Shown: one piece after another, positions 2,522 through 25,953 of the stretch | How the letters are laid out: each line of letters opens with the position of its first letter | How positions within the stretch are numbered: the first letter of the stretch is position 1 | Source: an uncultured Planctomycetaceae bacterium | Lineage (GTDB): Bacteria; Planctomycetota; Phycisphaerae; SM23-33 | Direction: 5' to 3' | Length of the DNA: 34,161 bases | Assembly: GCA_964483755.1 (NCBI GenBank) | Contig: CAZADC010000001.1 | Coordinates: 15,158 to 49,318, forward strand | The notes under the pieces: generated by a model | What the model saw: the letters and a program-made list of their open reading frames with translations, nothing else | Told to the model about the DNA's origin: nothing | Databases searched by the model: none | Made by a program: the position numbers and the translations under genes

Positions 2522-4735
2522 TCATTCGCCGTCGCATTCAGGGTTCGCCAGTCCCGGCTGCCTTCGCAGCGCCGCTTCTTCCCGCTGGAAACGCTCCAGG
2601 AGGTCCCCGTGGTCCAGACCGGCCGCCCTGGCGCGGTCGATGGCCTCACGCAGCAACTCGGCGTCGGCGGCGTCCGGATCTTCATCCCGCAGGCGCCGGG
2701 CCGCGCCGAGCGCCTCGATGAACGCCTCGGCCTGGTCCTGGAGCTCGCGGAGGACGCCGAGCAGGGCGTTGGGGTCGCCGCCGCGCTCCAGCTCCCGCCG
2801 GGCGGCGTCGCGTCGCTCGACGGCCAGGAGGAACTGCCCGACGGCGTTTCGCAGGTGCGCGGCCTCGGACGGTACGAACGGGCTGCGCCGCCCGCTGGCG
2901 GCGTCGGGGACGTTGAGCCATGAGCGATACGGCGAGCCGCCCGCGCCCGCGCTGCCGAAGTCGCACAGGCGGACGTTCCCGCCGTCGGCCGTCGGCGCCT
3001 CCAGCAGCATCGCCGGCGGCAGCCAGCCGGTCCATTTCGCCGGGCGGAACTCGAGATTCGCCGCGTCAAGCGCCGGCAGCGCGTCGGCCGGGGCGCCGGC
3101 GTAATCTCGATGCCAGGTGTCCAGAAGCGTCCCCTGCTCGGGGTCGGTGGCGTTGTAGCGGCGGTCCCAGGTCAGCAGGATCGGCCCGCGGTAGACGCTG
3201 GTCCGACCCGCGCACTGCCCGCGCCCCGCCCAGAAATGCGGTGTGAAGTCCAGCGTCAGCTCCACCGCGTCGCCGCCGGACCAGCGCCGCCGCAGGGGGA
3301 GGTACTCGCCGGGCTGCACGTTCTCGACCGCTTCGCCGTTGACGCTGACCCGCGTCTCCCGCGACCACTGCGGGATGCGGAGCTTGAGCTCCAGCTCGGC
3401 GGGGCGGGAGGGATGCACCGCCAGGCGGACGACATTGTCGTACGGATAGTCCGTCTGCTGAACGATCCGCAGCTCGCCGCCGTCGGCCAGCTCGGCCGTC
3501 ATCTCACCCGACGCGTATGCGTTCACCAGCAGCTCGCCGTCGTCGCCGCGCAGCATCGCCCAGCCGCTGAGCAGCCCGAACCCGCGGGCCGAGTTCACGC
3601 TGCAGCAGTTCAACTCCGGCGTGCCCTCGCGCGCCTGGAAGACGATCGAATGCGCGCTCGCCCGGCGCACGCCGTCCATCGGCGTGTCGTAGGTCGCCCA
3701 CCGACCGGTCGCGTTGTGCATGCCGAGCACGGAGTTGAGCAGCGTCAGCTCCAGCTCGTCCGCGACGCGGGAATCGCCGGTCAGGTGCAGCATCGTCTCG
3801 CCCAGCGCGGACCACGCGATCGTGCAGCAGGTCTCGATCGCTCCGGGATGGTACGGGTCGCCGACCGCCCGCTCGCCGGAGGTGAACCCGCCGTTGTTGT
3901 GCCGGTCGCCCCGGACGATGCTCCACCAGATCCGCTCGAACGCGTCGCGGTACGCCCGCTCGCCGGTCAGGTCGTACAGCTCCGCCATGGCGAGGATCGG
4001 GTGCAGGCTTTCCCAGCGCGGGCGCGGCAGCTCGAAGAACTCCCGACCCGACAGCGGCCCGCGGAGGTAATCCCCGGCAAGCGGGCGGCCGGCGTCATCG
4101 GTGGCGGTGAACTCGCGATCCACGATCTGCCGCGCCAGGTCGAGGTATCGCTGTTCGCCGGTCCTGCGGTAGAGCAGGCACAGCGAATGCGCCGGGGCGA
4201 GGTTCATCTCCGTGCTTCCGGTCTCGGCGAGGCGCGGCTCTGTGTCGCCGAGGTACATCTCGCACATCAGGTCGCCCGCACGTCGCGCGCACCACAGCGC
4301 GGCCGCGTCGCCGGTCGTTTCGCGCCAGGCGAGCAGCCCGAGCATCAGGTGGTAATGCCCCCAGGTGTCCCACGTGTTGGCGCACTGCGGGGCGTGGTTG
4401 GTCAACGCCGCCTCGCTCGGCCAGGGACCGAGATACCCGTTGTCGGCCTGCAGCGAGACCAGCTCGGCGACGAACGTCTCCAGCCGTCGACGGAGCTCTT
4501 CGTCGCCCGTCATCCGCAGCACGGCGACGGCGCCCGTGAGGTACTTGCCGGCGAACTCCCCGGCCCAGGGGACCATGTCCCGCCGCGGAAGCCGGTCGCG
4601 GTCGCGGAAGATCTCCAGCATCCCCGGGTTCGCCCACGGGGCAACCTTCAGCCATTGTTCGGTGACGTTGTCGACGTACTGGCCGAGTACGCCTCTGAAG
4701 CGGCAGGCCGTTGCGGCCGGTGTGAACGGAAGCAC
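2522..4735 (-). CDS. Glycoside hydrolase family 127-like (DUF1680, beta-L-arabinofuranosidase-like) with helical C-terminal extension
   Basis: 737 aa. It has the Glu-x-Cys (AIETCC) and Cys-Cys (PELNCCSVNSARG) motifs that match the Zn/catalytic Cys cluster of HypBA1-type GH127 enzymes. The last ~110 aa are Ala/Arg/Glu/Leu-rich and helical. Confidence 0.75.
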   Translation of the reverse strand: MLPFTPAATACRFRGVLGQYVDNVTEQWLKVAPWANPGMLEIFRDRDRLPRRDMVPWAGEFAGKYLTGAVAVLRMTGDEELRRRLETFVAELVSLQADNGYLGPWPSEAALTNHAPQCANTWDTWGHYHLMLGLLAWRETTGDAAALWCARRAGDLMCEMYLGDTEPRLAETGSTEMNLAPAHSLCLLYRRTGEQRYLDLARQIVDREFTATDDAGRPLAGDYLRGPLSGREFFELPRPRWESLHPILAMAELYDLTGERAYRDAFERIWWSIVRGDRHNNGGFTSGERAVGDPYHPGAIETCCTIAWSALGETMLHLTGDSRVADELELTLLNSVLGMHNATGRWATYDTPMDGVRRASAHSIVFQAREGTPELNCCSVNSARGFGLLSGWAMLRGDDGELLVNAYASGEMTAELADGGELRIVQQTDYPYDNVVRLAVHPSRPAELELKLRIPQWSRETRVSVNGEAVENVQPGEYLPLRRRWSGGDAVELTLDFTPHFWAGRGQCAGRTSVYRGPILLTWDRRYNATDPEQGTLLDTWHRDYAGAPADALPALDAANLEFRPAKWTGWLPPAMLLEAPTADGGNVRLCDFGSAGAGGSPYRSWLNVPDAASGRRSPFVPSEAAHLRNAVGQFLLAVERRDAARRELERGGDPNALLGVLRELQDQAEAFIEALGAARRLRDEDPDAADAELLREAIDRARAAGLDHGDLLERFQREEAALRRQPGLANPECDGE

Positions 4736-4936
4736 GAAGTGTTCTCCGGTTCTGTCCGGTCTCCCGCGGCCGGCGCACGTTGCGGGCCGATTGCGGATGG
4801 GAAACCACGATCGCAGCCATTAGGCCTTCAGGCATGCGGAATGCAACGTGTTTTGTCGGATTTTTCCGTTCCGTTGCGGGCGCGCGCCGCTACCATGCGC
4901 GTTTTGCCGGGCCTCAACGCAACGGGAGCCGCATCC

Positions 4937-6040
4937 ATGAACGCCGTGCAGCGCCTTCGTGCGACCTGGGAACACAGGCCGGTGGACCACCTGTTCCGCC
5001 GGGAGTTCTACATCTGGACCGAGGCCATCGATCGCTGGAGGGGCGAGGGCATGGACCCGGATGCCGACCCGGCCGAGCTGTTCGGCTTCGACCCGGTCGC
5101 CGACGTCGGCGCCGGCGGGCTGGGCTGGTGCGACCCGGCCTTTGCGCCCGCGATCGAGTCGAAGGTTCTCGATTCCACGGCCGAGTACGAGGTCATCCTT
5201 GACGCCTCCGGCCGGACGGTGAAGATGTTCAAGGGCCGCCGGCACGGGTTCATGCCGACCTACCTCAAGCACGCCGTCACCGGCTGGGACGACTGGCGCC
5301 GCGACGTCGAGCCCCGCCTCCAGCCGGACACGCCCGGTCGCTACGAGGGCTTCGACGCGAAGATCGCCGAGCTCCGGGCCGCCGACGCCGAGGGGAAGAT
5401 GATCATCCAGGGGGGCATCGGCGGGTACATGTACCTGCGGGCGCTGGTCGGACCGGAGGATATCTGCTACCTGCTGCTGGACGAGCCGGACCTGGTCCAC
5501 GCCATGATGCGGACCTGGCTGGAGCTCGCCGACGGGTGGACCGCCCGCGTGCAGGAGCACGTCGAGCTGGACGCCGTCTTCCTGGCCGAGGACATCTGCT
5601 ACAACCACGGGCTGCTCATCAGCCCGGACATGGTTCGCGAGTTCCTCTTCCCGTATTATCAGCAGCTTCTCAGCAACGTCCGGTCGCGGCAGGAGGGCAG
5701 GCGCCTGTACTTCCAGGTGGACACGGACGGCAACGTCGGCGAGGCGATCGACCTGTACAAGGAGATCGGGCTCGACGCCATGCTGCCGTTCGAGGTGGCG
5801 GCGGGCAATGACGTCGTGGATCTCGCCCGCCGGCATCCGGACGTCGTCTTCTCGGGCGGCATCGACAAGCGGGTCCTCGCGGAGGGACCGGACGCGATCG
5901 ACCGTTACCTGGAGGCGGTCATCCCGGCCATGCTGGAGCGCGGCGGATACGTGCCGACCTGCGATCACGGCGTGCCGGACAACGTGTCGTTCGACAACTA
6001 CATGCACTATCGCAGGCGAATGATGGAGCTGGATCACTGA
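4937..6040 (+). CDS. Uroporphyrinogen-decarboxylase (URO-D) fold family protein, function unknown
   Basis: Only the last 367 codons of the 976-aa track ORF look coding. The upstream part is antisense to the GH127 gene. ATG at 4937 (MNAVQRL). It shows URO-D/MtaA-like segments (FLAEDICYNHGLLISPDMVREFLFPYY, DAMLPFE). The assignment rests on remembered family features only. Confidence 0.6.
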   Translation: MNAVQRLRATWEHRPVDHLFRREFYIWTEAIDRWRGEGMDPDADPAELFGFDPVADVGAGGLGWCDPAFAPAIESKVLDSTAEYEVILDASGRTVKMFKGRRHGFMPTYLKHAVTGWDDWRRDVEPRLQPDTPGRYEGFDAKIAELRAADAEGKMIIQGGIGGYMYLRALVGPEDICYLLLDEPDLVHAMMRTWLELADGWTARVQEHVELDAVFLAEDICYNHGLLISPDMVREFLFPYYQQLLSNVRSRQEGRRLYFQVDTDGNVGEAIDLYKEIGLDAMLPFEVAAGNDVVDLARRHPDVVFSGGIDKRVLAEGPDAIDRYLEAVIPAMLERGGYVPTCDHGVPDNVSFDNYMHYRRRMMELDH

Positions 6041-7267: not shown

Positions 7268-7296
7268 TTGACACGGCATGAGGCAGCCGTTAGAAG
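7268..7296 (+). promoter_or_regulatory. Candidate sigma70-like promoter for the giant gene
   Basis: Perfect -35 TTGACA (7268-7273), a 17-nt spacer, then TAGAAG (7291-7296, 4/6 to TATAAT but lacking the final T). It sits about 100 nt upstream of the ATG at 7395. The call is weak. Confidence 0.25.
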
Positions 7297-7394
7297 AAGA
7301 TTCGGGAGTTCCCCCGGCAGTGGTGCTCCAGAAACGCTCCGCGCGCAGCCCGACGGAGTTCGTGAGAGGCGGTTTTTTCGTAGGAGATTACAGT

Positions 7395-10300
7395 ATGCCT
7401 CGCAAGTCCGATCGCTCGACGTCTCCCGCTCTTTTCGAGCAGCTCGAAGCCCGGCTGCTTCTCAACGGTGCGTTGGCCGATGGCCTGGGTGACGACGCCG
7501 GCTCGGAGGAGCTCGCTGCTCTCGTGGTGGATGCCGAGGCGGGCGGCTTGCCGCCGGGCACTCCCATGCAGGATCTGGGCGACGACGCGCCGGACGGCAC
7601 GGCTGAGATGGTTTACGACACCGGGACGGGTCAGGTGTGGTTCGACAACGGGGGCTCAACGATCAACCTGATCGAACTTTCAGTGAACTCCACAGAGGGC
7701 CTGGCGCTGGATCCCAGCATGTCGGACAGTTTCTTCACCGCGACCCCGAACGTGGATACGACCACGACGCTGCAGTACTTCGTGCCTGCGGGCCTGCCCA
7801 CGGGCGAAGACCAGGTAGGCGGGGTCGGTTACATGACTACCGGGCTCACCGAGCTCATCCAGGGCACACACCTTCTGTTCCGCTACCAGGTCCCCGGCGA
7901 GACGCTGGAGATTGGACTGATTACGATCATTGACGGCGGACCCGCTCCGACGGGCATTAGCGGCACCAAGTTCCACGATGAGAACGGCAACGGGGTGTTC
8001 GACGCCGGCGAGCCGGGCCTCGAGGGGTGGACGATCCGGCTGTTCACCGACGACAACGACAACGACGTGCTGGACGAGGCCGACACCCGCCGGCAGGCGG
8101 CGACCATCAACGACCTACGAGGAGGACGTCACCAACGCGAGCGGCGACTACGACTTCCTCGGGCTCTCGGCGGGCACATACTTCGTCGAGGAAGTCGCGC
8201 AGCTGGGGTGGGACCAGACCTTGCCCGGTGCTCCCGGATACCACACCGTGGACGTGGTAGAGGGGTCCGTTTCGCTTGACAGGGACTTCGGTAACATGGA
8301 GGCGCCCTTCGAAGGCATCGCCGGAAGCAAGTGGGAGGATCTCGACGGCGACGGCGTGTGGGACGCCGGCGAGGACGGGCTCAGCGACTGGACCATCCAG
8401 CTGTACGTCGATGACGGCAACGGCACGCTGGGGGTCGAGGATGCGCTGGCCGACGAAGCCGTCACGGACAGCCAGGGCGACTACGCCTTCCAAGGGCTGA
8501 CGACCAACACCTACTTCGTCCAGGAGGTGCTGCAATCCGGGTACGCCCAGACGCATCCCGGCGCCCCCGGCTACCACACGATCAACTACTCGGACGGCGA
8601 CGAGGTGCTCGACGTGGACTTCGGCAACCAGCCGATCCTGGGCATCAGCGGCGTCAAGTGGCACGACCTGAACGGCGATGGCGTGATGGACGCCGGCGAG
8701 CCCGGGCTCGAGGGGTGGACGATCACCGCCTGGCGGGACGCCAACGGCGACGGACTGATCGGCGGCGACGAAAGCAGCTTCACCACCACCACCAACGTCG
8801 ACGGCGAATACGCCTTCCCCACGCTGGCGCCGGGCTTCTACCGCGTCGCCGAGACGCTCGAGCCCGGATGGGTGCAGACCGGCCCGCTGGCGGGCGTCTG
8901 GCAGGGCGAGCTGACCACCGACGGCAGCATCGAGGACGTGAACTTCGGCAACATGCAGTTGGCCGACGCGAGCGGCGTCGTGTGGAACGACGTGAACGGC
9001 GACGGCGTTATCGATGGCGGGGAGTCGCTGCTGGAGGGCTGGACCGTCTTTGCCGACACCGACAGTGACGGCGAGTTGGACGCCGGCGAGATCAGCGCCG
9101 AGACCGCGGCCGATGGGACCTACACGCTGTCCGATCTGGCGCCGGGGCCGTACAACCTGACCGTCGTGATCCCGCCGGCCTGGGAGGCGACCGTGCCGGC
9201 GACCGGCATGATCTCGGTGAACCTCGTCAGCGGCGACGCGCTGGCCGACCAGGACCTCGGCGTCCGCCAGCCCGCACTGCCCGATCTGGCGAGCGGATCG
9301 ACCGATTTCAGTGACTACGCGCCGACGACCGTCAACCCGGGCGACGCCTGGCAGGTCGACTGGCGGGTGGTGAACAACGGAACCGTCGCCTCCGGCGACT
9401 TCCAGACGGCCTTCTACATCAGCGCGGACGCTGCGATTACGACCGACGACCTGCTGATCGGCACGGTGGACGCCGCGAGCATCGACGCGGGCGGCTTCGC
9501 CGATCTGACGCTGAACGTGGCGAGTTTTCCCGACGTCCCGGCCGGCGAGTACTTCGTCGGGGTGATCGTCGATTCCGCCGGCGCGGTGGCCGAGTCCGAC
9601 GAGCTCAACAACACCGGCGTGGACGACGCCGCGCCGCTGAGCGTGCCCGGCATCCGCGGGACGCTCTGGTACGACACCAACGCCGACGGCGTGATGGACC
9701 CGGGCGAGGAGCCTGTCGCCGGACAGACCATCTTCATCGACGCCGACCAGGACGGGATCGTCGATCCCGGAGAGGTCACCGCAACCACCGACGCCGACGG
9801 GTTGTATTCCTTCACCGGTCTGCCGGACGGCACCTACAACATCGACGTCGCGCTGCCGACCGGGTGGAGCCAGAGCTTCCCCGCGTCGCCGAATTACTCG
9901 ATCAGCTACACGGCCGGGACGGTGATCGCCGGCCGGGACTTCGGCGTCTCCGGAGCGGCCGACCTGCTCGACGAGGGTGACGCCTTCAGCGGATTCGATC
10001 CGCAGACCGTCGTTTCCCCCGGCGCCACGTGGGACGTCTGGTGGGACATCCGCAATGCCGGGACCGGCGACGCCGGCAGCTTCGTCGTGCGGGTCTACGC
10101 CTCCGTAGACAACGACATCTCCACGACGGAAGACAACATCCTCTTGGACAGCGAGACCGTCGCCGGCCTGGCCGCGGGCCAGTACCTGGATCTGAACCTC
10201 TCGCTCCTGGGGTTCCCCGAAATCCCCGCCGGCGATTACTATGTCGGCATCGTCATCGACCCGCTCAACAGCGTGCTCGAGACCGACGAGACCAACAACA

Positions 10301-13300
10301 CCGGCGTCAACCTCGAATACACGCTCAACGTGATCAACCGTCCGGATCTGCAGGGCGCCGTGCCCGAAGACAGCGGATTCGATCCGCCGGCCGTGCTCCC
10401 TGGCGACCAGTGGCACGCCTGGTTCGACGTGACGAACACCGGCGGCGAGGCGGCCGACCGGTTCCGCGTGGACTACTACGCCTCGACGAACAACAGCATC
10501 ACGACGCTCGACTACCACCTGGGCTACGACTGGGTGGAAGGGCTCGGGATGGACGAGGTCGCCCAGTCGGCCGTGTCGCTGATGAACTTCCCGGACCTGC
10601 CGGCCGGGGAGTACTACGTCGGGATCATCATTGACCGGGCAAACGTCATCCTCGAGGGCGACGAGCTGAACAACAAGGCCGTCTCGTCCACCTACCCGCT
10701 GATCGTTCCCGGCCTTTCGGGAACCAAGTGGGAGGACATGGACGGCGACGCCGTGCGCGACGCCGCCGACCTCGGCCTCAGCGGGTGGACCATCCGCCTG
10801 TACACCGACGACAACGACAACGGCGTGCTGGACCCCGCCGAGGAAGCCACCTTCCAGGAAACCACCACCGACGATGACGGTCGCTACGAGTTCAAGGACC
10901 TCGCCACCGGCCGCTACTTCGTGCAGGAGGTCCAGCAGGCCGGGTGGGGCCAGAGCTACCCCGCCGACATGCACACGGTCGAATACACGGTCGACACGTT
11001 CGTCGGCCAGCTCGACTTCGGCAACGCCGAGCTGGTGACGATCAGCGGCGTCAAGTGGCACGATCTGGACGGTGACGGCGTCCTGGACGACGGCGAGCCA
11101 ACCCTTGAGGGCTGGACGATCTTCCTCGACGAGAACGACAACGGCGTCCTGGACGTCGGTGAGACCAGCACCGAGACGGACGCCGGCGGGGAATACAGCT
11201 TCACGGATCTCATGCCCGGTCAGTACGTGGCGGCGGAGGTTGACGAGTTCGGCTGGATGCAGTCCTGGCCGACCGGCGACGGCGTGTACCGCCTGACGGT
11301 GACCAGCGGCAGCGACGAGATCGACGTGAACTTCGGCAACTACGAGCCGGCCGAGGCCCGCGGACTGAAGTGGCACGATGTCAACAGCGACGGCACGCGC
11401 CAGATCGGCGAGCCGGGGCTCGATGACTGGATCATCTACGGCGACGTCAACGACAACGGCGTGCTGGACCTCGACGAGCCGTCCACCGTGACGGACGCCG
11501 ACGGCAATTACGCCCTGACGAACCTGCCCCCGGGCGACTACACCATTCGCGAGGTCCTGCAGGACGGCTGGGAGCAGTCCTTCCCCGTCGGCGGGCACGC
11601 GGTGACGATCGTCAGCGGGGACGTGCTTGCGGACCTGGATTTCGGCAACTTCCAGCCGGGCGAGATCAGCGGCGTCAAGTGGCATGATCTCGACGCCGAC
11701 GGCGTCTACAAGGACGCCGAGGACGGCCTCGAGGGCTGGACGATCTTCCTCGACGAGGACGACAACGGGTTGCTGGACTGGACCGACGGCGACGGGGACG
11801 GCGTGTGGGACGCCGGCGAGGGCGAGCAGTGGACGCTGACCGACGCCGACGGCGCCTACAGCTTCACCGGCCTGACGTACGGTACGTATCACGTCCGCGA
11901 GCTCCTGCAGCCCGACTGGGAGCAGTCGGCCCCGGCGACCGGCGAGTACGTGGTGACGGTTGCCAGCGGGAGCGTGGTGACCGGGCGGAACTTCGGAAAC
12001 TACATGCCGGCCGTCATCGAAGGCGTCAAGTGGCACGACATCAACGGCGACGGCGGGTACGACGTGGGAACCGAGCCGCTGCTGGAGGGGTGGACCATCT
12101 TCCTCGACCAGAACGAGAACGGCGTTCTCGACGCCGGCGAGGTGTCCACGACCACCGACGAATTCGGCGAATACAGCTTCACCGGGCTCGTCCCGGGTCC
12201 CTATACGGTTGCCGAGGTGATGCAGCCCGACTGGTCGCAGTCCTACCCGGCGAGCGGGTCCTACGGCATGACGCTCGTCAGCGGCGATGTGGCCTCGGAC
12301 ATGAACTTCGGGAACTACGCGTTCGGCGAGATTTCCGGCACGAAGTGGGATGACCTGAACATCAACGGCATCCGCGAGGACGGCGAGCCGGGCATCGAGG
12401 ACTGGACCGTCTTCCTCGACGCCGACGACGACGGCGAGCTGGACTGGACGGACGCGAACGACAACGCCGTCTGGGATGCGGGCGAAGGCGAGCGGTGGAC
12501 GCTCACCGACGCCGATGGCGCCTACGTCTTCGACGAGCTGAGCCCGGGCGACTACGTCGTCGCCGAGGTGCTCGAGGCGGGATGGACGCAGTCCGCCCCG
12601 ACCGCGGGCGCCTACGCCCTGACCGTCACGAGCGGGCTGGTCGTCGAAGGCAACGACTTCGGGAACTTCCGCCTCGGGCAGATCAGCGGACACAAGTGGA
12701 ACGATCTCGACGGCGACGGCGTGTGGGACGTCGGCGAGACGGGCCTCGAGGACTGGGTGATCTTCATCGACGAGGAGCTCGGCATGCCCGGCGGCACGAC
12801 GCTGCTGGACACCGGCTTCGACACCGATCCCCGCGCCTCCGGCTGGGTGCTCACCGACTGGGACCTCGACGTCCACGACACCGGCGGATGGACGGACACC
12901 GACCAGTTCATCGCCCCGGGCGACTACATGTGGCAGTCGCCGCAGTTCACCGCGGCGCCGCTGAGCTACTTCCGGATCGACTTCATCGCCCGCGGGACGG
13001 GTGACGGGTTCGTCGCCGGCATGGGCTTCAACCCGGAGGCCGAGTTCGGCCGCTATCCCGACGCGGACGCGACGGCCGGCGAACTGGTCGCCGATGACTG
13101 GACCAGCTACGAGCTGACCGACACGTGGCAGACGTTCACCTACTATACGCGGGCCCGGTCCAACGCCGTCACCGACGCGGTGCGGTTCATGGGCGCTGGT
13201 ACGGAGGTGGACGACGTTACGGTGACCACCGCCAGCGACGCCGAGGCGCGCGACTGGTACGACGGCGTCTACGCCGGCATACCCGCCGTGACCTACGACC

Positions 13301-16300
13301 CCGGCGCCGGACGCTTCGACGGCGTCGAGGACTTCATCGGCAAGCTGGAGGCCGGCGAGGACGTCCGCATCGTCTTCCTCGGCGACAGCATCATGCTCGA
13401 TTCCGGCAACTCCGGCATCGACGTGCTCCTGGAACGCATGTATCCCGGCTCCAACGTCGAAATCGTCACCGCCGTCGGCGGCGGGACGGGCGTGGACAAG
13501 TGGGCGGTCGACGAGCTCTACGACTGGCCGGACCACGACCTGGATCTCGACGCCGCCGTCATCGACCAGCAGCCTGACCTGGTGCTCATCGGCGGGATCA
13601 GCAACAACGAGGCCTACGACGACTTCCGCAGCGTCATCGACGACGTCCGCGACGGCGTCCAGACGCAGTTCGGCTACGAGGTGGACATCATGCTGATGAC
13701 CGGCGCGTTCGGAACGGGCAGCGACCCGGCCGGATACGCGACCGAGCTGGCCTCCATCGCGGCCGAGAAGGACACGGCGTTCATGGACATGCGGGCTGCG
13801 TGGACCGCCTACATGGCCGACGCCGCTCTCGCCGGCTACGACAGCACGTACTTCTATCGTGACGGCGTCCACGCCAACGCGTACGGCAAGCAGGTGATCG
13901 GGCGCATCATGCAGGCGCAGTTCGCGCCGGACACCATACCCGACACGGCCGGCAACGGCGTGCTGGACTGGACCGATCTGAACGACAACGGCGTGTGGGA
14001 CGCCGGCGAGGGCGAGCGGTGGACCACCACCGACGCGACGGGCGCCTACGCCTTCACCGACCTCATGCCCGGCGAATACGTGCTCGCCGAGGTGCTGCAG
14101 GACGGGTGGGTGCAGACGGCTCCCGAAACCGGCGTGCACAACGTGGTCGTGACCAGCGGCGCGGACCTCACCGGCGTCGACTTCGGCAACGTCGAGGGCG
14201 GCACGATCCAGGGCGCCAAGTGGTACGACATCAACGCCGACGCGGTCTGGGACGCCGAGGAGGACGCGCTGGAAGGCTGGACGATCCGCCTTTACAGTGA
14301 CCTCAACAACAACGGCGTGCTCGAAGAGGCCGAGCGGGACGAGTACCTCGAGGACGTCACGGACGTCGACGGCGCGTACGAGTTCACCGACCTCCTGCCC
14401 GGACGCTACTTCGTCGAGGAGCAGCTCCAGGCCGACTGGGCCCAGACCTTCCCGCTCAGCGGCATCTACACCGTCAACATCACGGCGGGGCTGACCGTCG
14501 CCGATCAGGATTTCGGCAACGTCCTGACCAGCGACATCAGCGGGATGAAGTTCGAGGATCTCAACGGCAACGGCGCCTTCGACGCCGGCGAGCCCGGGCT
14601 CGAAGGCTGGACCATCTTCCTCGACCAGAACGACGACGGCGTGCTTGACGCCGGCGAGCCCAGCACGGTCACCGCGGCCGACGGAACGTACACCTTCGCC
14701 GAGCAGCTCCCCGGCACCTATTACGTCGCCGAGCAGCTCCAGGCGGGCTGGACGCAGTCCTACCCGGCCGCCGGTTCGCACGAAATCGAGCTGGTCAGCG
14801 GCGTCGACCAGGGCGACGTGGACTTCGGCAACTGGACCACGGGGTCCATCTCCGGCGCCAAGTGGGACGACCAGAACTACGACGGCGTGTGGGACGCCGA
14901 GGAACCGGCCCTGCCCGACTGGACGATCTTCCTCGACGAAGACGACGACGGCGAGCTGGACTGGACCGACGGCAACGACAACGGCGTCTGGGACGCCGGC
15001 GAGGGCGAGCAGTGGACCCTCACCGACGCCCAGGGCGACTACAGCTTCTCCGACCTGCCCCCGGGCGACTACGCCGTGGCGGAGGTGATCGAGGACGGCT
15101 GGTACCAGAGCTATCCCGCCGGCGGCGTGCACGAGCTGACGCTGGTCAGCGGTACGGCAGTTGAGGACCTCGACTTCGGCAACGGCCTGGCCGTGTCGAT
15201 CACCGGGTACAAGTGGAACGACGTGAACGGCGACGGCGTCTGGGACGTCGGCGAGGAGGGCCTCCAGGACTGGACGCTCTACCTCGACGCCAATGACAAC
15301 GGCGAGCTGGACGCGGGCGAGGCCACGGCCGTCACGCTCGCCGACGGCAGCTACGCCTTCGGGCCGCTCATGCCGGACACCTACATCGTCCGCGAGGATC
15401 TCGCCGCCGACTACTGGACGCAGACCGCGCCGGTCGACGGATACTACGAACTGACGCTCGCGCCGGGCGAGACGGCCGCCGATCAGAACTTCGGCAACCA
15501 GTCCCGGCCGCTCGCCAACGACCTGGAGGTCGCGACCGACGAGGACACCGACCTCAACGAAACGGTCACCGGGTGGGACTTCGAGGACGACGATTTGACG
15601 TTCGCGATCGACACCCAGCCGGCGAACGGCACGGTGACGATGAACCCGGACGGAAGCTTCACCTACGATCCGGACGACGACTTCAACGGCGTGGACACCT
15701 TCACGTTCATCGCTTCCGACGATTACAACGACAGCGAGCCCGGCACGGTGACGGTCACCGTCAACCCGGTAAACGACGGGCCGGTCGCGAACGACATGAA
15801 CCTGGCGACCGACGAGGACACGCCGCTCGTGATCGACCTGGACGCGACGGATGTAGAGACCGATCCGGCGGACCTGATCTACACGATCACCTCCCCGCCG
15901 ACCCACGGCACGCTGGACGAAACCGGCCCCGGGCAGTACCTCTACACGCCGGACGACGACTACAACGACGCGGCTGCCCCCGATACCTTCACCTACACGG
16001 TGACCGACACGGGCGACCCGGCCGGCGTGGGGACAAGCCCCGCGCTGACCAGCGGCGAGGCGACGGTGAGCATCACCGTCAATCCTGTCAACGACCCGCC
16101 GATCGCCCATCCGCAGACCGTGGAGATCGACTTCGAGGGCCAGCCCATCGCCATCGACCTGACCGGCGAGGACGTCGAGACCCCGGCCGGCGAGCTCACC
16201 TACGACATCGTCACACAGCCGGTATTCGGTGAGGTGACGCTGGTCGGCAGCACCGCATGGTACACGGCGTCGACGGTCTGGGGCGGCGGGCTGGACAGCT

Positions 16301-17598
16301 TCCGGTTCACCGTCACGGACACGGGCGACCCGGCCGGTGTCGGCGACAACGCCGAAACCAGCGTCCCGGCGACGGTCACGCTCGACGTGGCGCCGTTCGC
16401 CTACTTCGACGAGAACCAGGACGCCGTCTACTACGGCTGGGGCTTCGGCGCCGACGATCCCGCCGTCATCTCGCTCAAGAAGGAAGGGCAGGGATGGGCG
16501 GTGTTCGGCCGGGACGATCCCGAGCGCATCGAGCGCATCCTGGTCGACGGCACGACGGACAACAGTCAGCTCGATATCCAGGTGCCCAACCTCGGCTGGC
16601 AGATCGGCGACATCAACATCGACGGCTCGCTGAAGAGCCTCGATGCTAACGGTTCGCTGGTCGGCGACATCCACGTCACCGAGTGGCTCGGCGACCTGGA
16701 CTTCGGGGACGTCTTCTGGATCGGCGGCGAGCACACCGTCCGGATTGACGGCGTCGGCGACGAGATGAAAGTCGAGTTCGGGCGCATGGCCGACATCACC
16801 TTCGACTCCAACACGCCGGTAAAGAAGTTCGACTTCACCGACTGGACGGATCGCACCGGCGGCGACGACTGGCTGCGGGCGCCGTACGTCGACAAGCTGA
16901 GCGCCAACGGCGACGGCAACGCCGTGGCGGGGAATTTCCAGGCCAACCTGGACGTCGACACGCTCGACAAGGCCAAGATCGACGGCGGCGTGATGGCCGG
17001 ACAGTGGCTCATCCCCGACGGCGTCGGCAAGCTTCAGGTTGACGACGACTTCCAGGTCGCCGACTTCCAGACCCGCTACCTCGACAAGTTCGACGTCGGC
17101 GGGTCGGTCGTGGATACCGAGATGCGGCTCGGACAGATGGACGGACAGTCCGCCAAGAAGATGTCCGTTGACGAGTGGCTGCGCGACAGCCGCATCTTCG
17201 GCGACGGCGAGTTCGGAAAGGTCGAGTTCGGCGGGATGGACTCCAGCGTGTTCGGCGCCGGACTGCTGGATACGCTCGACGGGTTCGCGCCCGGCGCTGC
17301 CGGATACGTCAAGAAGTTCGACGTCGGCGGCGTGACCGATCCGCTCGGCTTCTCCATGATCGATTCCCTGGCGGCCGCTCACACCTTCAACAAGGTGTCC
17401 CTGGAGTACGTCCAGGGCAATAACGCCGGCAACGCCGGATACCCGGACCTGCTCGGGCCGGGCGATTTCGGCGTCGTCGCCGACGTGGCGATCGACAAGC
17501 TGCAGGTCGAACGCACCAACGGCGAGAAGCTGAAGTTCAAGTCCGACGAGATGCCCGACGGGCAGGTCTTCCAGGATTTCTGGGTCCGGGTGGTCTGA
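7395..17598 (+). CDS. Giant (~3,400 aa) repeat-rich extracellular protein, reading frame broken once (pieces 7395..8279 in frame 0 and 7930..17598 in frame 1)
   Basis: AGGAG lies 9 nt upstream of the ATG at 7395. The frame-0 ORF ends inside the first SdrD-B-like repeat (ISGTKFHDENGNGVFDAGEPGLEGWTIRLFTDDNDNDVLDEADT...). The rest of that repeat (...YEEDVTNASGDYDFLGLSAGTYFVEEVAQLGW...) continues in frame 1. It is therefore one gene with a 1-nt frame break near 8110-8116. Confidence 0.8.
7956..9279 (+). repeat. SdrD-B / Cna-B-like repeats 1-4 of the giant protein
   Basis: Units of about 105-115 aa with this pattern: (I/L)SGxKWxDxNGDGxxDxGExGLxGWTIxL...DxxGxYxFxxLxPGxYxVxExxxxGWxQxxP...xxDFGN. 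Confidence 0.75.
9280..10707 (+). other. Three CARDB-like domains (9280-9645, 9958-10335, 10336-10707) with SdrD-B-like repeat 5 between the first two
   Basis: Each domain has PDL...F(S/D)...PxxVxPGxxWxVxWxxxNxGT..., then ...xFYxSxDxxITTxDxLL..., then ...FPxxPAGxYYVGxxxDxxxxVxExDExNNTG. This matches the remembered CARDB signature. Confidence 0.6.
10708..12774 (+). repeat. SdrD-B / Cna-B-like repeats 6-11 plus the N-terminal half of repeat 12
   Basis: Same repeat pattern. Repeat 12 stops after ...ISGHKWNDLDGDGVWDVGETGLEDWVIFIDE (12772-12774). Confidence 0.75.
12775..13953 (+). other. 393-aa insertion inside repeat 12: beta-sandwich/CBM-like region (~12796-13230) + SGNH/GDSL hydrolase domain (~13360-13925)
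   Basis: SGNH blocks: VRIVFLGDSIM (GDS Ser codon 13387-13389), LVLIGGISNNE (GxNx block) and YRDGVHANAYG (DxxH, 13861-13872). The preceding segment ends in a ...AVRFMGAGTEVDDVTVT motif, typical of the last strand of binding-module beta-sandwiches. Confidence 0.65.
13954..15504 (+). repeat. C-terminal half of repeat 12 plus SdrD-B / Cna-B-like repeats 13-16
   Basis: The sequence resumes with NGVLDWTDLNDNGVWDAGEGERWTTTDATGAYAFTDLMPGEYVLAEVLQDGWVQTAP. This aligns to the second half of intact repeats 9, 11 and 15. Confidence 0.75.
15505..16395 (+). other. Three cadherin-like / bacterial Ig (VCBS, tandem-95-type) domains
   Basis: Three units of the form ANDxxxxTDEDTxLxxxL...DxDxDxLTYxIxxxPxxGTxxxxxxGxxxYTPxxDxNGxDxFTYxxxD...VTVNPVNDxP. 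Confidence 0.65.
16396..17595 (+). other. C-terminal ~400-aa region with a periodic short motif (beta-helix-like), no recognisable anchor
   Basis: A motif recurs roughly every 20-35 aa: hydrophobic-(K/D)K-(L/F)-x-(V/F)-x-G. Examples are LKSLDANGS, VKKFDFTDW, VDKLSANGD, LDKAKIDGG, VGKLQVDDD, LDKFDVGGS, FGKVEFGGM, VKKFDVGGV and IDKLQVERT. There is no PEP-CTERM, LPXTG or T9SS-like tail that I can recognise. Confidence 0.4.
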
Positions 17599-17618
17599 CC
17601 GACGCACTGTGGACAACC

Positions 17619-23504: not shown

Positions 23505-24737
23505 ATGAGCGGCGCGAGCCGACAGCACGTGCTGGACGCGATCGACCACGTCCCGCCGGACCGCGTGCCGGTCGACTTCGGCGGGCATCGAAGCAGCGGG
23601 ATCATGGCGATCGCTTACGCGAAGCTGCGGGAGCATCTCGGCCTGCCCCGCCGCCGGCCGCGAGTGTACGACATCGTCCAGCAGATCGCGATCATCGACG
23701 ACGACGTGCTCGACCGCTTCGGCGTGGACACGATCGAGCTCGGCCGGGGGTTCTGCGAGGACGAGTCATGGTGGAAGGAATGGCGCCTGCCGGACGGCAC
23801 GGAGTGCCTGATTCCCGCCTGGATGGACGTGCGCGCGGAGGGCGGCGACTGGATCCTGCACTCGCAGTCCGGCCGGCCCGTCGGTGTGCACAAGGCCGGT
23901 TCGCTGTACTTCGAGGCGAACCACTGGCCGTACCTCGACGGCGTCCCCGACGACCTGACCGACCTGCCCCGCGCGATGGAGGACGTCATCTGGGCGATCC
24001 CGTCCCCGCCCGGGCCGTGCGCGGCGACGCCGGAGGACCTGGCCGCCGGCGCGGCGAGATTGCGCGCGTCGACCGGCCGGGCGATCGTCGCGCTGTTCGG
24101 CGGCAACCTGATGGAGTGGGGACAGTTCCTCTGTCGCAACGACAACTTCTACGTGCTCCTCGCGGGCGAGCTCGACAGGGCGCACGCGCTGCTCGACCGG
24201 CTGACGGAGATTCACCTCGCGTCGCTGGAGACGTTTCTCGGCGCGGTCGGCGAGCACATTGACGTCATCCTGTTCGGCGACGACCTGGGCATGCAGACCG
24301 GCCCGCAGATATCCCCAACGATGTACCGCGAATTCTTCAAGCCGCGCCACGCGGCGCTTTGGCGGCGGGCGAAGGAGCTGGCGGACGTGAAGGTCCAGCT
24401 GCACTGCTGCGGCGGCGTCCGTCCGCTGCTGGACGACCTGATCGACGCCGGGCTCGAGGCGATCAACCCCGTCCAGACGAGCTGCGCCGGCATGGAGCCC
24501 GGCGCACTGAAGGCCGACTTCGGCGACAGGATCTGTCTGTGGGGCGGCGGGTGCGACACGCAGACCGTCCTGGGGCAGGCGACGCCGAAGGAGATTCGCG
24601 ACCACGTCCTTCGCCGCCTGGAGACGCTCTCGCCCGACGGGGGGTTCGTCTTCCAGCAGGTGCACAACGTCATGGCCGACGTGCCGCCCGCCAACGTCGT
24701 CGCGATGTTCGATGCCGTCGCGGAGTTCAACCGTTGA
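23505..24737 (+). CDS. Uroporphyrinogen-decarboxylase (URO-D) fold family protein, second paralogue
   Basis: 410 aa with URO-D/MtaA-like segments (ILFGDDLGMQTGPQISPTMYREFFKP, LHCCGG, LEAINPVQ). Only distantly similar to the 4937-6040 product. Confidence 0.6.
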   Translation: MSGASRQHVLDAIDHVPPDRVPVDFGGHRSSGIMAIAYAKLREHLGLPRRRPRVYDIVQQIAIIDDDVLDRFGVDTIELGRGFCEDESWWKEWRLPDGTECLIPAWMDVRAEGGDWILHSQSGRPVGVHKAGSLYFEANHWPYLDGVPDDLTDLPRAMEDVIWAIPSPPGPCAATPEDLAAGAARLRASTGRAIVALFGGNLMEWGQFLCRNDNFYVLLAGELDRAHALLDRLTEIHLASLETFLGAVGEHIDVILFGDDLGMQTGPQISPTMYREFFKPRHAALWRRAKELADVKVQLHCCGGVRPLLDDLIDAGLEAINPVQTSCAGMEPGALKADFGDRICLWGGGCDTQTVLGQATPKEIRDHVLRRLETLSPDGGFVFQQVHNVMADVPPANVVAMFDAVAEFNR

Positions 24738-24804
24738 CGAGCGTCCAGGCCGGTCATCCCCCGGCATTTACGGCACGGTCCCGTCGTTGTTCGGAGTGAA
24801 TCCC

Positions 24805-25953
24805 ATGCACTGGAACATGGAGGAGCTGTCACGGCCGCCGGAGAGACACCCGGCGCCGGCATTCGAGGAGCCGGGCGTCGAGGCGCTGTTCTTCGACGCG
24901 CCGGAGTTCGGCGGCAGGCCCACGCGGAGCTTCGCGTGGATCGGATTGCCCGAGGCGGCGGTCCGCGAGCCGGTTCCGGGGATGGTTCTCGTCCACGGCG
25001 GCGGGGGCACGGCCTTCGCCGAGTGGGTCCGCCTCTGGACGTCACGCGGGTACGCCGCCATCGCGATGGACACCTGCGGGTGCGTGCCCGGCGGGGAGAG
25101 CGGCAAGCGCCCGCGTCACGAGATGGGCGGACCGGCCGGCTGGGGCGACTTCGCCCGCGTCGACGAGCCCGTGACCGAGCAGTGGGCATACCACGCCGTC
25201 GCCGACGTGATCCTCGCCCACTCGCTTCTGCGATCCCTGCCGCAGGTCGACGCGGAGCGGATCGGCGTCACGGGCATCTCCTGGGGCGGGTACCTCACCT
25301 GCATCACGGCCGGGGTTGACCGGCGCTTCCGCTTTGCCGTTCCCGTCTACGGCTGCGGGTTCCTCGGCGACAACTCCGTTTGGCTTCAGAACTTCCGCGA
25401 GCTGGGCCCGCAGCGCGCCGGCCGCTGGCTGGAGCTGTGGGACCCCTCACGGTACCTTCCGGCCGCAGGTCTTCCCATGCTGTGGGTGACGGGCACGAAC
25501 GACTTCGCCTATCCCATGGACTCCCTGCGCAAGAGTTACCGCCTGCCGCCCGGACAGCGCACACTGTGCGTCCGTGTCCGCATGCCGCACGGGCACGGCG
25601 GGGCGGGGGAGAAGCCGCCCGAGATCGCCGTCTTCGCCGACAGCGTTCTGCGCGGCGGCGACCCGCTGGCGAGGATTCCAGACAGTCGAACCGACGACCG
25701 GGACGTCGAGGTGCGGTTCCGCGCCGACGTGCCGATCGTCCGGGCGGAGTTGTGCTTCACGGCCGACACGGGCCCGTGGCCGGAGCGCGAATGGCGCGTC
25801 CGACCGGCCGAGCTGGACGCCGGCGCAGGACGGGTTCGCGCGACGGTGCCGGACGATGCCGCCGTCTGGTACGTGAACCTGCTCGACGAGCGCGGCTGCG
25901 TCGTGAGCGCCGAGCACGTCGAACGCGGCGAGGAGAGCGGAGGGCGGTCGTGA
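24805..25953 (+). CDS. Alpha/beta-hydrolase, acetyl-xylan-esterase / dienelactone-hydrolase-like
   Basis: MVLVHGGGG oxyanion-type segment, nucleophile elbow GISWGG (GxSxG) and a later MPHGHG segment. The ATG at 24805 leaves a 67-nt gap after the previous stop. Confidence 0.6.
   Translation: MHWNMEELSRPPERHPAPAFEEPGVEALFFDAPEFGGRPTRSFAWIGLPEAAVREPVPGMVLVHGGGGTAFAEWVRLWTSRGYAAIAMDTCGCVPGGESGKRPRHEMGGPAGWGDFARVDEPVTEQWAYHAVADVILAHSLLRSLPQVDAERIGVTGISWGGYLTCITAGVDRRFRFAVPVYGCGFLGDNSVWLQNFRELGPQRAGRWLELWDPSRYLPAAGLPMLWVTGTNDFAYPMDSLRKSYRLPPGQRTLCVRVRMPHGHGGAGEKPPEIAVFADSVLRGGDPLARIPDSRTDDRDVEVRFRADVPIVRAELCFTADTGPWPEREWRVRPAELDAGAGRVRATVPDDAAVWYVNLLDERGCVVSAEHVERGEESGGRS

Follow-up and report, generated by a model that had tools for sequence, protein, structure and literature searches.

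A two-domain, esterase-like module nested in a split SdrD_B repeat of a giant planctomycete protein

Guest modules that leave and re-enter an Ig-like domain are a recognised signature of the ligand-binding regions of RTX adhesins (PMC12077191, PMC10865825). In adhesins of the AhLap, FrhA and MpIBP type, an Ig-like sandwich in a long calcium-dependent fibre is broken after its first strand(s), a guest is held out sideways, and the chain returns to its host. Here, we analysed a stretch of 34,161 nucleotides (nt) from an uncultured Planctomycetaceae bacterium (the window; contig CAZADC010000001.1, positions 15,158 to 49,318 of the forward strand), and found a similar arrangement in the product of its giant open reading frame (ORF): one SdrD_B repeat is split by a guest of 391 amino acids (aa), which is built as a jelly-roll beta-sandwich followed by an SGNH-fold domain. 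The differences from the RTX adhesins are also clear. The host has an SdrD_B/CnaB-like fold instead of BIg; its guest, a two-domain module of an enzyme type, is not a lectin, peptide-binding or vWA domain; this guest lies at about 50-60% of the chain, not in a distal ligand-binding region; and an LEPR-XLL N-terminus takes the place of RTX repeats and a type I secretion (T1SS) signal. Since no RTX (HemolysinCabind) or BIg families were found among the Pfam matches of the whole giant protein, it is not an RTX adhesin. A preliminary description of this DNA, made from the sequence alone, had called the architecture unusual for adhesin-like giant proteins. This was overstated, since the split-domain design itself is known; what is new is the SdrD_B host, the enzyme-type two-domain guest and its occurrence in a planctomycete LEPR-XLL protein.

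The insertion site also has a precedent. In the pilus and fimbrial tip adhesins RrgA, GBS104 and Mfa5, proteins of ~900 aa (PMC7835359), an IgG-like (Cna-type) stalk domain takes up a vWA guest between its strands B and C, which is the same topological site as here. Those hosts are isopeptide-stabilised, whereas the present one has calcium loops and belongs to a 3,000-aa fibre. The B domains of staphylococcal SdrD and SdrG (PDB 4JDZ; PMC6232131) share the Pfam family SdrD_B, the tandem array and acidic calcium loops of the DxDxDG type, but they are uninterrupted; here one loop hosts the guest, and some repeats (117 aa) have an extra duplicated loop. For the guest, a close described design is that of the CE2 esterases (CjCE2A, 2waa; Est2A, 3u37; PMC9487903), in which a jelly roll at the N-terminus likewise precedes an SGNH catalytic domain at the C-terminus. 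A Ser-His dyad is used by many CE2 enzymes, whereas the guest keeps an Asp in block V and has a Ser at the Asn position of block III. SGNH and jelly-roll domains are also combined by domain-in-domain insertion in Ape1 with its CBM35, in CE20 and in viral haemagglutinin-esterase (PMC9487903, PMC12313940). In those proteins the beta-sandwich lies inside the SGNH domain; here the order is reversed, and the enzyme unit lies inside a beta-sandwich of the stalk.

The giant ORF, the split repeat and its guest, and the intact repeats used for comparison are as follows. Query residues are those of the AlphaFold2 (AF2) models, with confidence given as the predicted local distance difference test (pLDDT).

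7930-17598, forward strand: giant ORF, 3,222 codons open, with ~15 SdrD_B repeats, CARDB, three cadherin-like/Big_9 domains and an orphan C-terminal region of ~480 aa.
12682-12777, forward strand: the split SdrD_B repeat before the guest (aa 1585-1616, ISGHKW...IFIDEE), with strands A and B, calcium loop 1 and the first three positions of calcium loop 2.
12778-12798, forward strand: N-side linker LGMPGGT, rich in Gly, Pro and Thr; AF2 pLDDT <50 at query residues 33-36.
12799-13233, forward strand: guest domain 1, a jelly-roll beta-sandwich of ~145 aa, CBM-like (CBM, carbohydrate-binding module) by fold; all-beta in AF2 (query residues 40-184, pLDDT ~90-97).
13237-13926, forward strand: guest domain 2, an SGNH-fold (GDSL-like) alpha/beta domain of ~230 aa (query residues 186-415, pLDDT mostly >90).
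13927-13950, forward strand: C-side linker PDTIPDTA, rich in Pro, Thr and Asp; it sits where free-standing relatives have PEP-CTERM or a small C-terminal domain.
13951-14205, forward strand: the split SdrD_B repeat after the guest (aa 2008-2092, GNGVLDWTDLNDNGVWDAGE...FGNVEGGT), with what is left of calcium loop 2, the additional calcium loop found in long repeats and six beta-strands.
11665-12015, 12331-12681 and 14848-15198, forward strand: intact 117-aa repeats of the long sub-type.

The host repeat starts at 12682 with ISGHKWND, reads normally to IFIDE (end 12774) and resumes at NGVLDWTDLNDNG (13954). The last two positions had been given in the preliminary description, as had the Ser codon at 13387-13389 and the place of the DGVH motif at 13861-13872, and they all check out together with the bounds of the ORF. 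The length of the insert needs a small correction from 393 aa: the insertion stands, and its neatest parse is 391 aa (L1617-A2007, nt 12778-13950), set in after the third position of the calcium loop. Multiple alignment placed the interruption inside a calcium-type loop common to all repeats (FLDE-D/N-D-N-G-V-L-D). When the insert is excised, the loop reads D-E-E-G-N-G-V-L-D, and intact repeats read D-E-D-D-N-G-L-L-D. Because excision of L1617-A2007 restores the calcium loop, no host residue has been lost. Of the acidic, putative calcium-binding loops, DLDGDGVWDVGE and DLNDNGVWDAGE are intact in the split repeat, and the guest cuts the middle one (D-E-E/G-N-G-V-L-D).

Over their full length, the joined halves could be aligned with each of the three intact repeats of 117 aa, with 67-68 of 115 residues identical and a sole gap of two residues at the junction. 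Identity of the rejoined repeat to its nearest paralogues was 57-62%, and the intact repeats are 41-65% identical among themselves. Against Pfam SdrD_B (PF17210; cut-off 29.7 bits), the rejoined repeat scored 37.1 bits, compared with 45.1 and 33.0 for intact long repeats, and its C-terminal half alone in native context (query residues 446-487) scored 34.1 bits. Judged by identity and by Pfam score, the host repeat shows no decay, an argument that folding is still required of it.

Structural searches of the second AF2 model against the PDB with Foldseek gave as top match the CE2 esterase 2waa (E 8.2e-10), whose domain order, beta-sandwich then SGNH, is that of the guest; 3u37 (CE2) was also found, and Ape1 was among the top hydrolase matches. 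The alpha/beta part matched the acetyl xylan esterase 7ddy (template modelling (TM) score 0.64-0.67 on target), the GDSL protein 4q9a (0.53) and the two-domain acetyl-mannan esterase 6hfz (0.41-0.43), each with probability 1.00. Matches of the beta part were jelly rolls of CBM4, CBM16, CBM22, MAM and the toxin receptor-binding domain CDTb RBD, and the CBM-type ones (1gui, 2zex, 1k42, 8xmz, 2w5f) had TM scores of 0.39-0.57 on target. A carbohydrate-binding-like region had been proposed at ~12796-13230, which nearly coincides with the beta-sandwich of the model. From its predicted fold the domain would be CBM-like, and this likeness is at fold level only: no CBM sequence family was matched, and the beta-sandwich (searched as 12775-13260) had no Pfam match at E <= 10.

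Sequence signal for an SGNH hydrolase came only from the SGNH half alone or from a profile of the guest's family. The SGNH half matched Lipase_GDSL_2 over profile positions 1-177 of 178 (21.2 bits, E 4.4e-4), and the family profile matched 7ddy (E 1.2e-8) and Axe2 (~6e-4) among PDB sequences. A PDB sequence search with the whole insert gave nothing significant. Thus, of the profile families that had been proposed at first, SdrD_B is supported by the rejoined repeat, Lipase_GDSL_2 falls below its cut-off, and CBM families are without a match.

The guest has many free-standing relatives. Searching with the 393-aa insert, we found 18 proteins (P0001-P0018, uncharacterised; 233-499 aa) with E-values of 6e-121 to 1e-21, identities of 29-52% and coverage of 52-98% of the query; with matches at 1e-121 to 1e-58, chance is excluded. 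Free-standing proteins of 365-500 aa match almost all of the insert at 40-52% identity. These proteins are homologous to the whole guest and have all its motif blocks in common, but they stand alone, whereas the guest is nested. By inspection, most have a hydrophobic N-terminal leader. Several end in PEP-CTERM (Pfam and TIGR02595) and others in a small C-terminal domain. Homology of the insert starts right after the leader of the relatives (~TLLDTGF) and stops right before the anchor. The leader and the C-terminal sorting signal of PEP-CTERM surface proteins, present in relatives, are both absent from the insert, which comprises the mature core only.

In a profile search of 1.84 billion representatives, 1,221 relatives passed E <= 1e-3 and 363 passed E <= 1e-30; the median length was 406 aa. 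Lipase_GDSL_2 was matched by 10 of 19 family members at E <= 0.01, and the only cluster name obtained was 'GDSL-type esterase/lipase family protein', from a metagenome-assembled genome (MAG) of Opitutaceae. The neighbourhood of the closest free-standing homologue contains genes like those of non-ribosomal peptide synthetases (NRPS), tetratricopeptide repeat (TPR) proteins and histidine kinases, and gives no functional clue. A few relatives are part of large proteins, where they stand at either terminus, at an internal position (P0032) or as three copies (P0038). P0038 (1,169 aa) has the jelly-roll and SGNH module three times in tandem. P0032 (2,722 aa) is a long, low-complexity, Asn-rich protein, subtilisin-like by eye in its N-terminal region, with the module at residues 1073-1467. 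Other large surface proteins thus use the module as a mobile building block. An SdrD_B-like repeat was present in none of the 164 retrieved relatives of the module and at none of 80 metagenomic loci, and the nested arrangement is so far unique to the window.

The DNA of the insert carries no compositional sign of foreign origin. Its G+C content at third codon positions (GC3) is 0.936 against 0.93-0.94 in the host, and its distance from the host in relative synonymous codon usage (RSCU) is 0.22, within the 0.22-0.60 of host chunks. Since the codon usage of the insert is indistinguishable from that of the host, the event was old or intragenomic. We found no second copy of the insert within the window and no target-site duplication at the junctions. 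The sole word shared by the junctions is the 8-nt TGCTGGAC, at 12803-12810 (L-L-D) and 13961-13968 (V-L-D). It could be microhomology from the insertion event, and is at about chance level for two GC-rich windows of 69 nt.

Taken together, these data are best explained by a calcium-binding SdrD_B fibre in which one split repeat displays a CE2-like esterase as guest, a reading to which we give a probability of about 0.65. The giant protein would be a secreted, fibre-like protein of a Planctomycetota (Phycisphaerae-like) bacterium, with a shaft of calcium-binding SdrD_B (CnaB/prealbumin-like) beta-sandwich repeats, one of which would be a 'split domain'. After the first two strands, inside the second calcium loop, the chain would leave this repeat through a linker of ~8 residues, fold as the 391-aa unit, first the jelly roll and then the SGNH-fold domain, return by a second linker of ~8 residues and complete the remaining six strands. 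The linkers LGMPGGT and PDTIPDTA would supply slack for this excursion. The guest would derive from the mature part of the widespread free-standing family, several members of which are PEP-CTERM-anchored, and is most likely a hydrolase of carbohydrate O-acetyl (or other) esters of CE2-like design. In such an enzyme, Ser1820 would be the nucleophile and His1981 and Asp1978 the acid-base pair; Ser1820 and a block II Gly would contribute their backbone amides to the oxyanion hole, joined there by a Ser or Asn of block III. The jelly-roll domain would hold or position the polysaccharide, and the shaft would display the enzyme sideways, about half-way along the fibre.

The putative active site is made up of four motif blocks:

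13387-13389, forward strand: block I, with Ser1820 as nucleophile (FLGDSIM); all 19 of 19 family members have G-D-S.
13477-13491, forward strand: block II GGGTG (context AVGGGTG), with the oxyanion-hole Gly; its glycines are invariant or nearly so in the family.
13591-13608, forward strand: block III GGISNN, non-canonical, with the invariant Ser1891 where GxND families have Asn, and Asn1892 next to it.
13861-13872, forward strand: block V D1978-G-V-H1981, with the predicted catalytic Asp and His; R-D and H are invariant and aligned to RDrVH of 7ddy.

The family-invariant residues GDS, D363 and H366 are all kept in the window copy. Block III is different. The 'GxNx block' claimed for it at first does not hold, since G-G-I-S-N-N is non-canonical and places Ser1891 on the Asn column of Axe2; at the neighbouring position of Asn1892, relatives have S, H or T. 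The claim of a complete SGNH esterase is therefore borne out for the fold and for the conserved Ser, Gly, Asp and His, but not for block III or for the Pfam score. As block III lacks one defining SGNH feature, esterase activity remains putative. Altered oxyanion holes do occur in some SGNH families (PMC9487903), and the non-canonical block III does not rule out catalysis.

The same motifs bear on the possibility that the guest is a ligand-binding module and not an enzyme, its catalytic machinery being vestigial or only gripping acetylated glycans. All split-domain guests described so far are ligand-binding (PMC12077191), and a survey of RTX adhesins contains no enzyme terms, which together with block III and the sub-threshold Pfam score of the window copy would fit such a module. 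However, Ser, Asp, His and the block II glycines are invariant in 19 members that are only 28-53% identical, and are kept here, as selection for catalysis predicts. The closest structures, moreover, are active esterases. We thus consider a pure binding module unlikely.

Whether the two halves of the host form one domain was addressed with two AF2 runs. In run 1, the family alignment had half-repeat rows only; in run 2, ten intact repeats spanning the gap were added. Run 1 gave a mean pLDDT of 85.9, with no strands in the N-half and a pLDDT of 44-59 there. The mean rose to 89.5 in run 2, with predicted TM scores (pTM) of 0.77-0.78 for the two runs (run 2, 0.78). Specifically, run 2 showed two strands in the N-half (query residues 2-7 and 26-32, pLDDT 91-95) and six in the C-half (query residues 446-505, pLDDT 84-94), and only linkers and calcium loops remained low (33-36 and 421-443, pLDDT <50). 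Confidence of this order cannot be reached by two strands on their own, which means that in the model the halves are almost certainly packed against each other. The predictions are consistent with reassembly of the half-repeats into one domain rather than proof of it. With a complete host, an autonomous guest and confident models of both, the domain-in-domain insertion into a loop of an Ig-like repeat that had been proposed is supported, and the structure prediction is consistent with it in run 2 but leaves the N-half unstructured in run 1.

These models also speak to a broken rather than split repeat, in which the halves would not refold and the insertion would be a flexible hinge or bead between partial domains. 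The behaviour of the N-half in run 1, the cut calcium-binding loop and the low confidence of residues 421-443 even in run 2 are what such a hinge would show. Against it, neither half is decayed, the rejoined sequence passes the Pfam SdrD_B cut-off, and excision restores a perfect loop; given paired rows, both halves reach a pLDDT of 84-95 with eight strands in all; and the same B/C-strand insertion site occurs in solved structures (PMC7835359). A broken repeat appears slightly less likely again than a guest without catalysis.

It is improbable that the guest is instead an O-acyltransferase which, in the manner of AlgX, PatB or OatA, decorates exopolysaccharide of the same cell on its way past the fibre. 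PEP-CTERM proteins are linked to exopolysaccharide-producing systems, and one member of the guest's family has a weak Pfam match to a DUF459/PatB family. SGNH-fold transferases exist, some with altered oxyanion holes or CBM-like domains (PMC9487903). But such an enzyme needs an acyl donor relay like AlgI/AlgJ or PatA. A relay of this kind is implausible in the middle of a fibre outside the cell, and among the window ORFs scanned there was no such partner gene. The top structural matches are also hydrolases (CE2, acetyl xylan and acetyl mannan esterases, Ape1).

An assembly chimera of a repeat-rich MAG contig, or a pseudogene in which the arrangement has no function, is very improbable. The repeats, at ~72% DNA identity to one another, do make the region highly repetitive, there is an apparent frameshift at ~8.1 kb, and no identical or near-identical contig was found elsewhere. 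But both junctions are in frame and within one codon-precise loop position, the leader, anchor and stop codon expected from a mis-joined free-standing gene are not present, codon usage matches the host, a frame of 9.6 kb is open, and repeats at ~72% identity are too divergent to collapse in assembly.

Several observations weigh against a functional esterase held on an intact fibre. On the host side, the insertion cuts a calcium loop of a calcium-dependent fold (PMC6232131), and the repeat might be weakened. Since the B domains of SdrD and SdrG owe their strength to three Ca2+ per domain (PMC6232131), an insertion in such a loop may, by analogy, carry a mechanical cost. Packing of the half-repeats was judged from pLDDT and strands, the rows of intact paralogues bias run 2 toward one domain, and the Foldseek match lists of both models were dominated by guest-domain matches. 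On the guest side, overall TM scores to CE2 structures are low (0.2-0.3), with a different relative orientation of the two domains. The whole insert had no match when scanned against Pfam, the Lipase_GDSL_2 score of the SGNH half lies under the cut-off of 32.9 bits, neither a CE2-related Pfam or NCBIfam family (even at E <= 10) nor a CBM sequence family matches the guest, and HMMER puts the invariant Ser1891 on the block III Asn of Axe2 (G-I-N-D). For the gene as a whole, the frameshift at ~8.1 kb leaves expression of the full protein unproven, and searches with the C-terminal region, the threonine synthase (thrC) locus and peptides found no orthologue of the giant protein, with or without the insert.

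The window has a G+C content of 67-72%. Pfam found 15 SdrD_B stretches in the giant ORF in addition to CARDB and cadherin-like/Big_9 domains, and repeat starts were located by a pattern scan. Two sub-types of repeat were seen: one of 104-110 aa with a single D-x-N-G-V-L-D loop after strand B, and one of 117 aa with an extra duplicated loop (DWTDxNDNGVWDAGEGE). The guest-bearing repeat is of the long (117-aa) sub-type, and at 12682-14205 it is the only nested repeat seen in the giant protein. CARDB occurs in three stretches at 9310-9651 and 9970-10713, which stand in tandem between complete SdrD_B repeats and are not nested. The C-terminal 483 aa of the giant protein (16147-17595; rich in D, G and V) had no homologue among 5.8 billion proteins and matched no Pfam or NCBIfam family; this orphan region is possibly an anchoring or tip domain. 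Antisense to the giant gene lies an ORF of 3,169 codons (8107-17616, reverse strand). It is most likely not a gene but a mirror ORF arising from the high GC3 (0.92) of the sense frame.

The N-terminus of the giant protein is encoded in another frame:

7278-8279, forward strand: probable true 5' part of the giant gene, in a frame other than that of the main ORF; its N-terminal LEPR-XLL-type motif FEQLEARLLLNG is followed by the N-terminal half of the first SdrD_B repeat.

Residues 52-73 of this ORF matched NCBIfam NF012209, the N-terminal motif of LEPR-XLL giant proteins, with 19.8 bits (cut-off 17), and residues 232-264 gave a weak SdrD_B match (E 9.4e-4, 19.8 bits, under the 29.7 cut-off). 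The first SdrD_B repeat is begun in the frame of this ORF and continued in the 7930 frame, and the apparent frameshift, at ~8090-8116 within this repeat, parts the LEPR-XLL N-terminus from the main ORF. Thus, the giant gene probably spans 7278-17598 and contains the frameshift, which stems from an error of sequencing or assembly or else is a real lesion; only in the first case is the LEPR-XLL ORF joined to the main ORF. Candidate starts are the ATG at 7278 and an internal Met at 7395.

Elsewhere in the neighbourhood, two ORFs (one of 976 aa) have URO-D-like domains and another encodes an AXE1/Peptidase_S9-type alpha/beta hydrolase (positions 3110-6040, 23505-24737 and 24712-25953, forward strand). 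Other nearby genes encode an aldo/keto reductase, an LTXXQ protein, threonine synthase and an MlaD protein. The downstream thrC product is at most 71% identical to those of Phycisphaerae and other Planctomycetota MAGs, and the loci with thrC relatives had no similar giant gene and no synteny with it. An exact-peptide scan of metagenomes with a 508-aa fragment gave no match.

More tentatively, the locus may encode an 'enzyme on a mast': an active CE2-like esterase, captured from the PEP-CTERM family and set codon-precisely in an SdrD_B calcium loop, on an LEPR-XLL fibre that tethers the cell to an external (for example, algal) polysaccharide and deacetylates it at a distance. We regard this full picture as a doubtful but possible one. 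If true, it would be the first enzyme as guest of an adhesin split domain, and would mean that a whole protein can be inserted into the calcium loops of B-type repeats without harm. With an inactive module or a dead gene, the locus would be a tidy case of domain capture and little more. If it is active, the split-domain principle would extend from ligand-binding to catalytic guests, and from RTX/BIg and Gram-positive pilin scaffolds to the SdrD_B repeats of Planctomycetota. It would also be a natural two-domain graft in a calcium loop of one of the mechanically strongest folds, of use in protein engineering (loop-insertion display, rigid stalks). Finally, an active module would give the first functional handle on giant LEPR-XLL proteins, which are poorly understood, and on an uncharacterised family of jelly-roll and SGNH surface proteins with more than 1,000 members.

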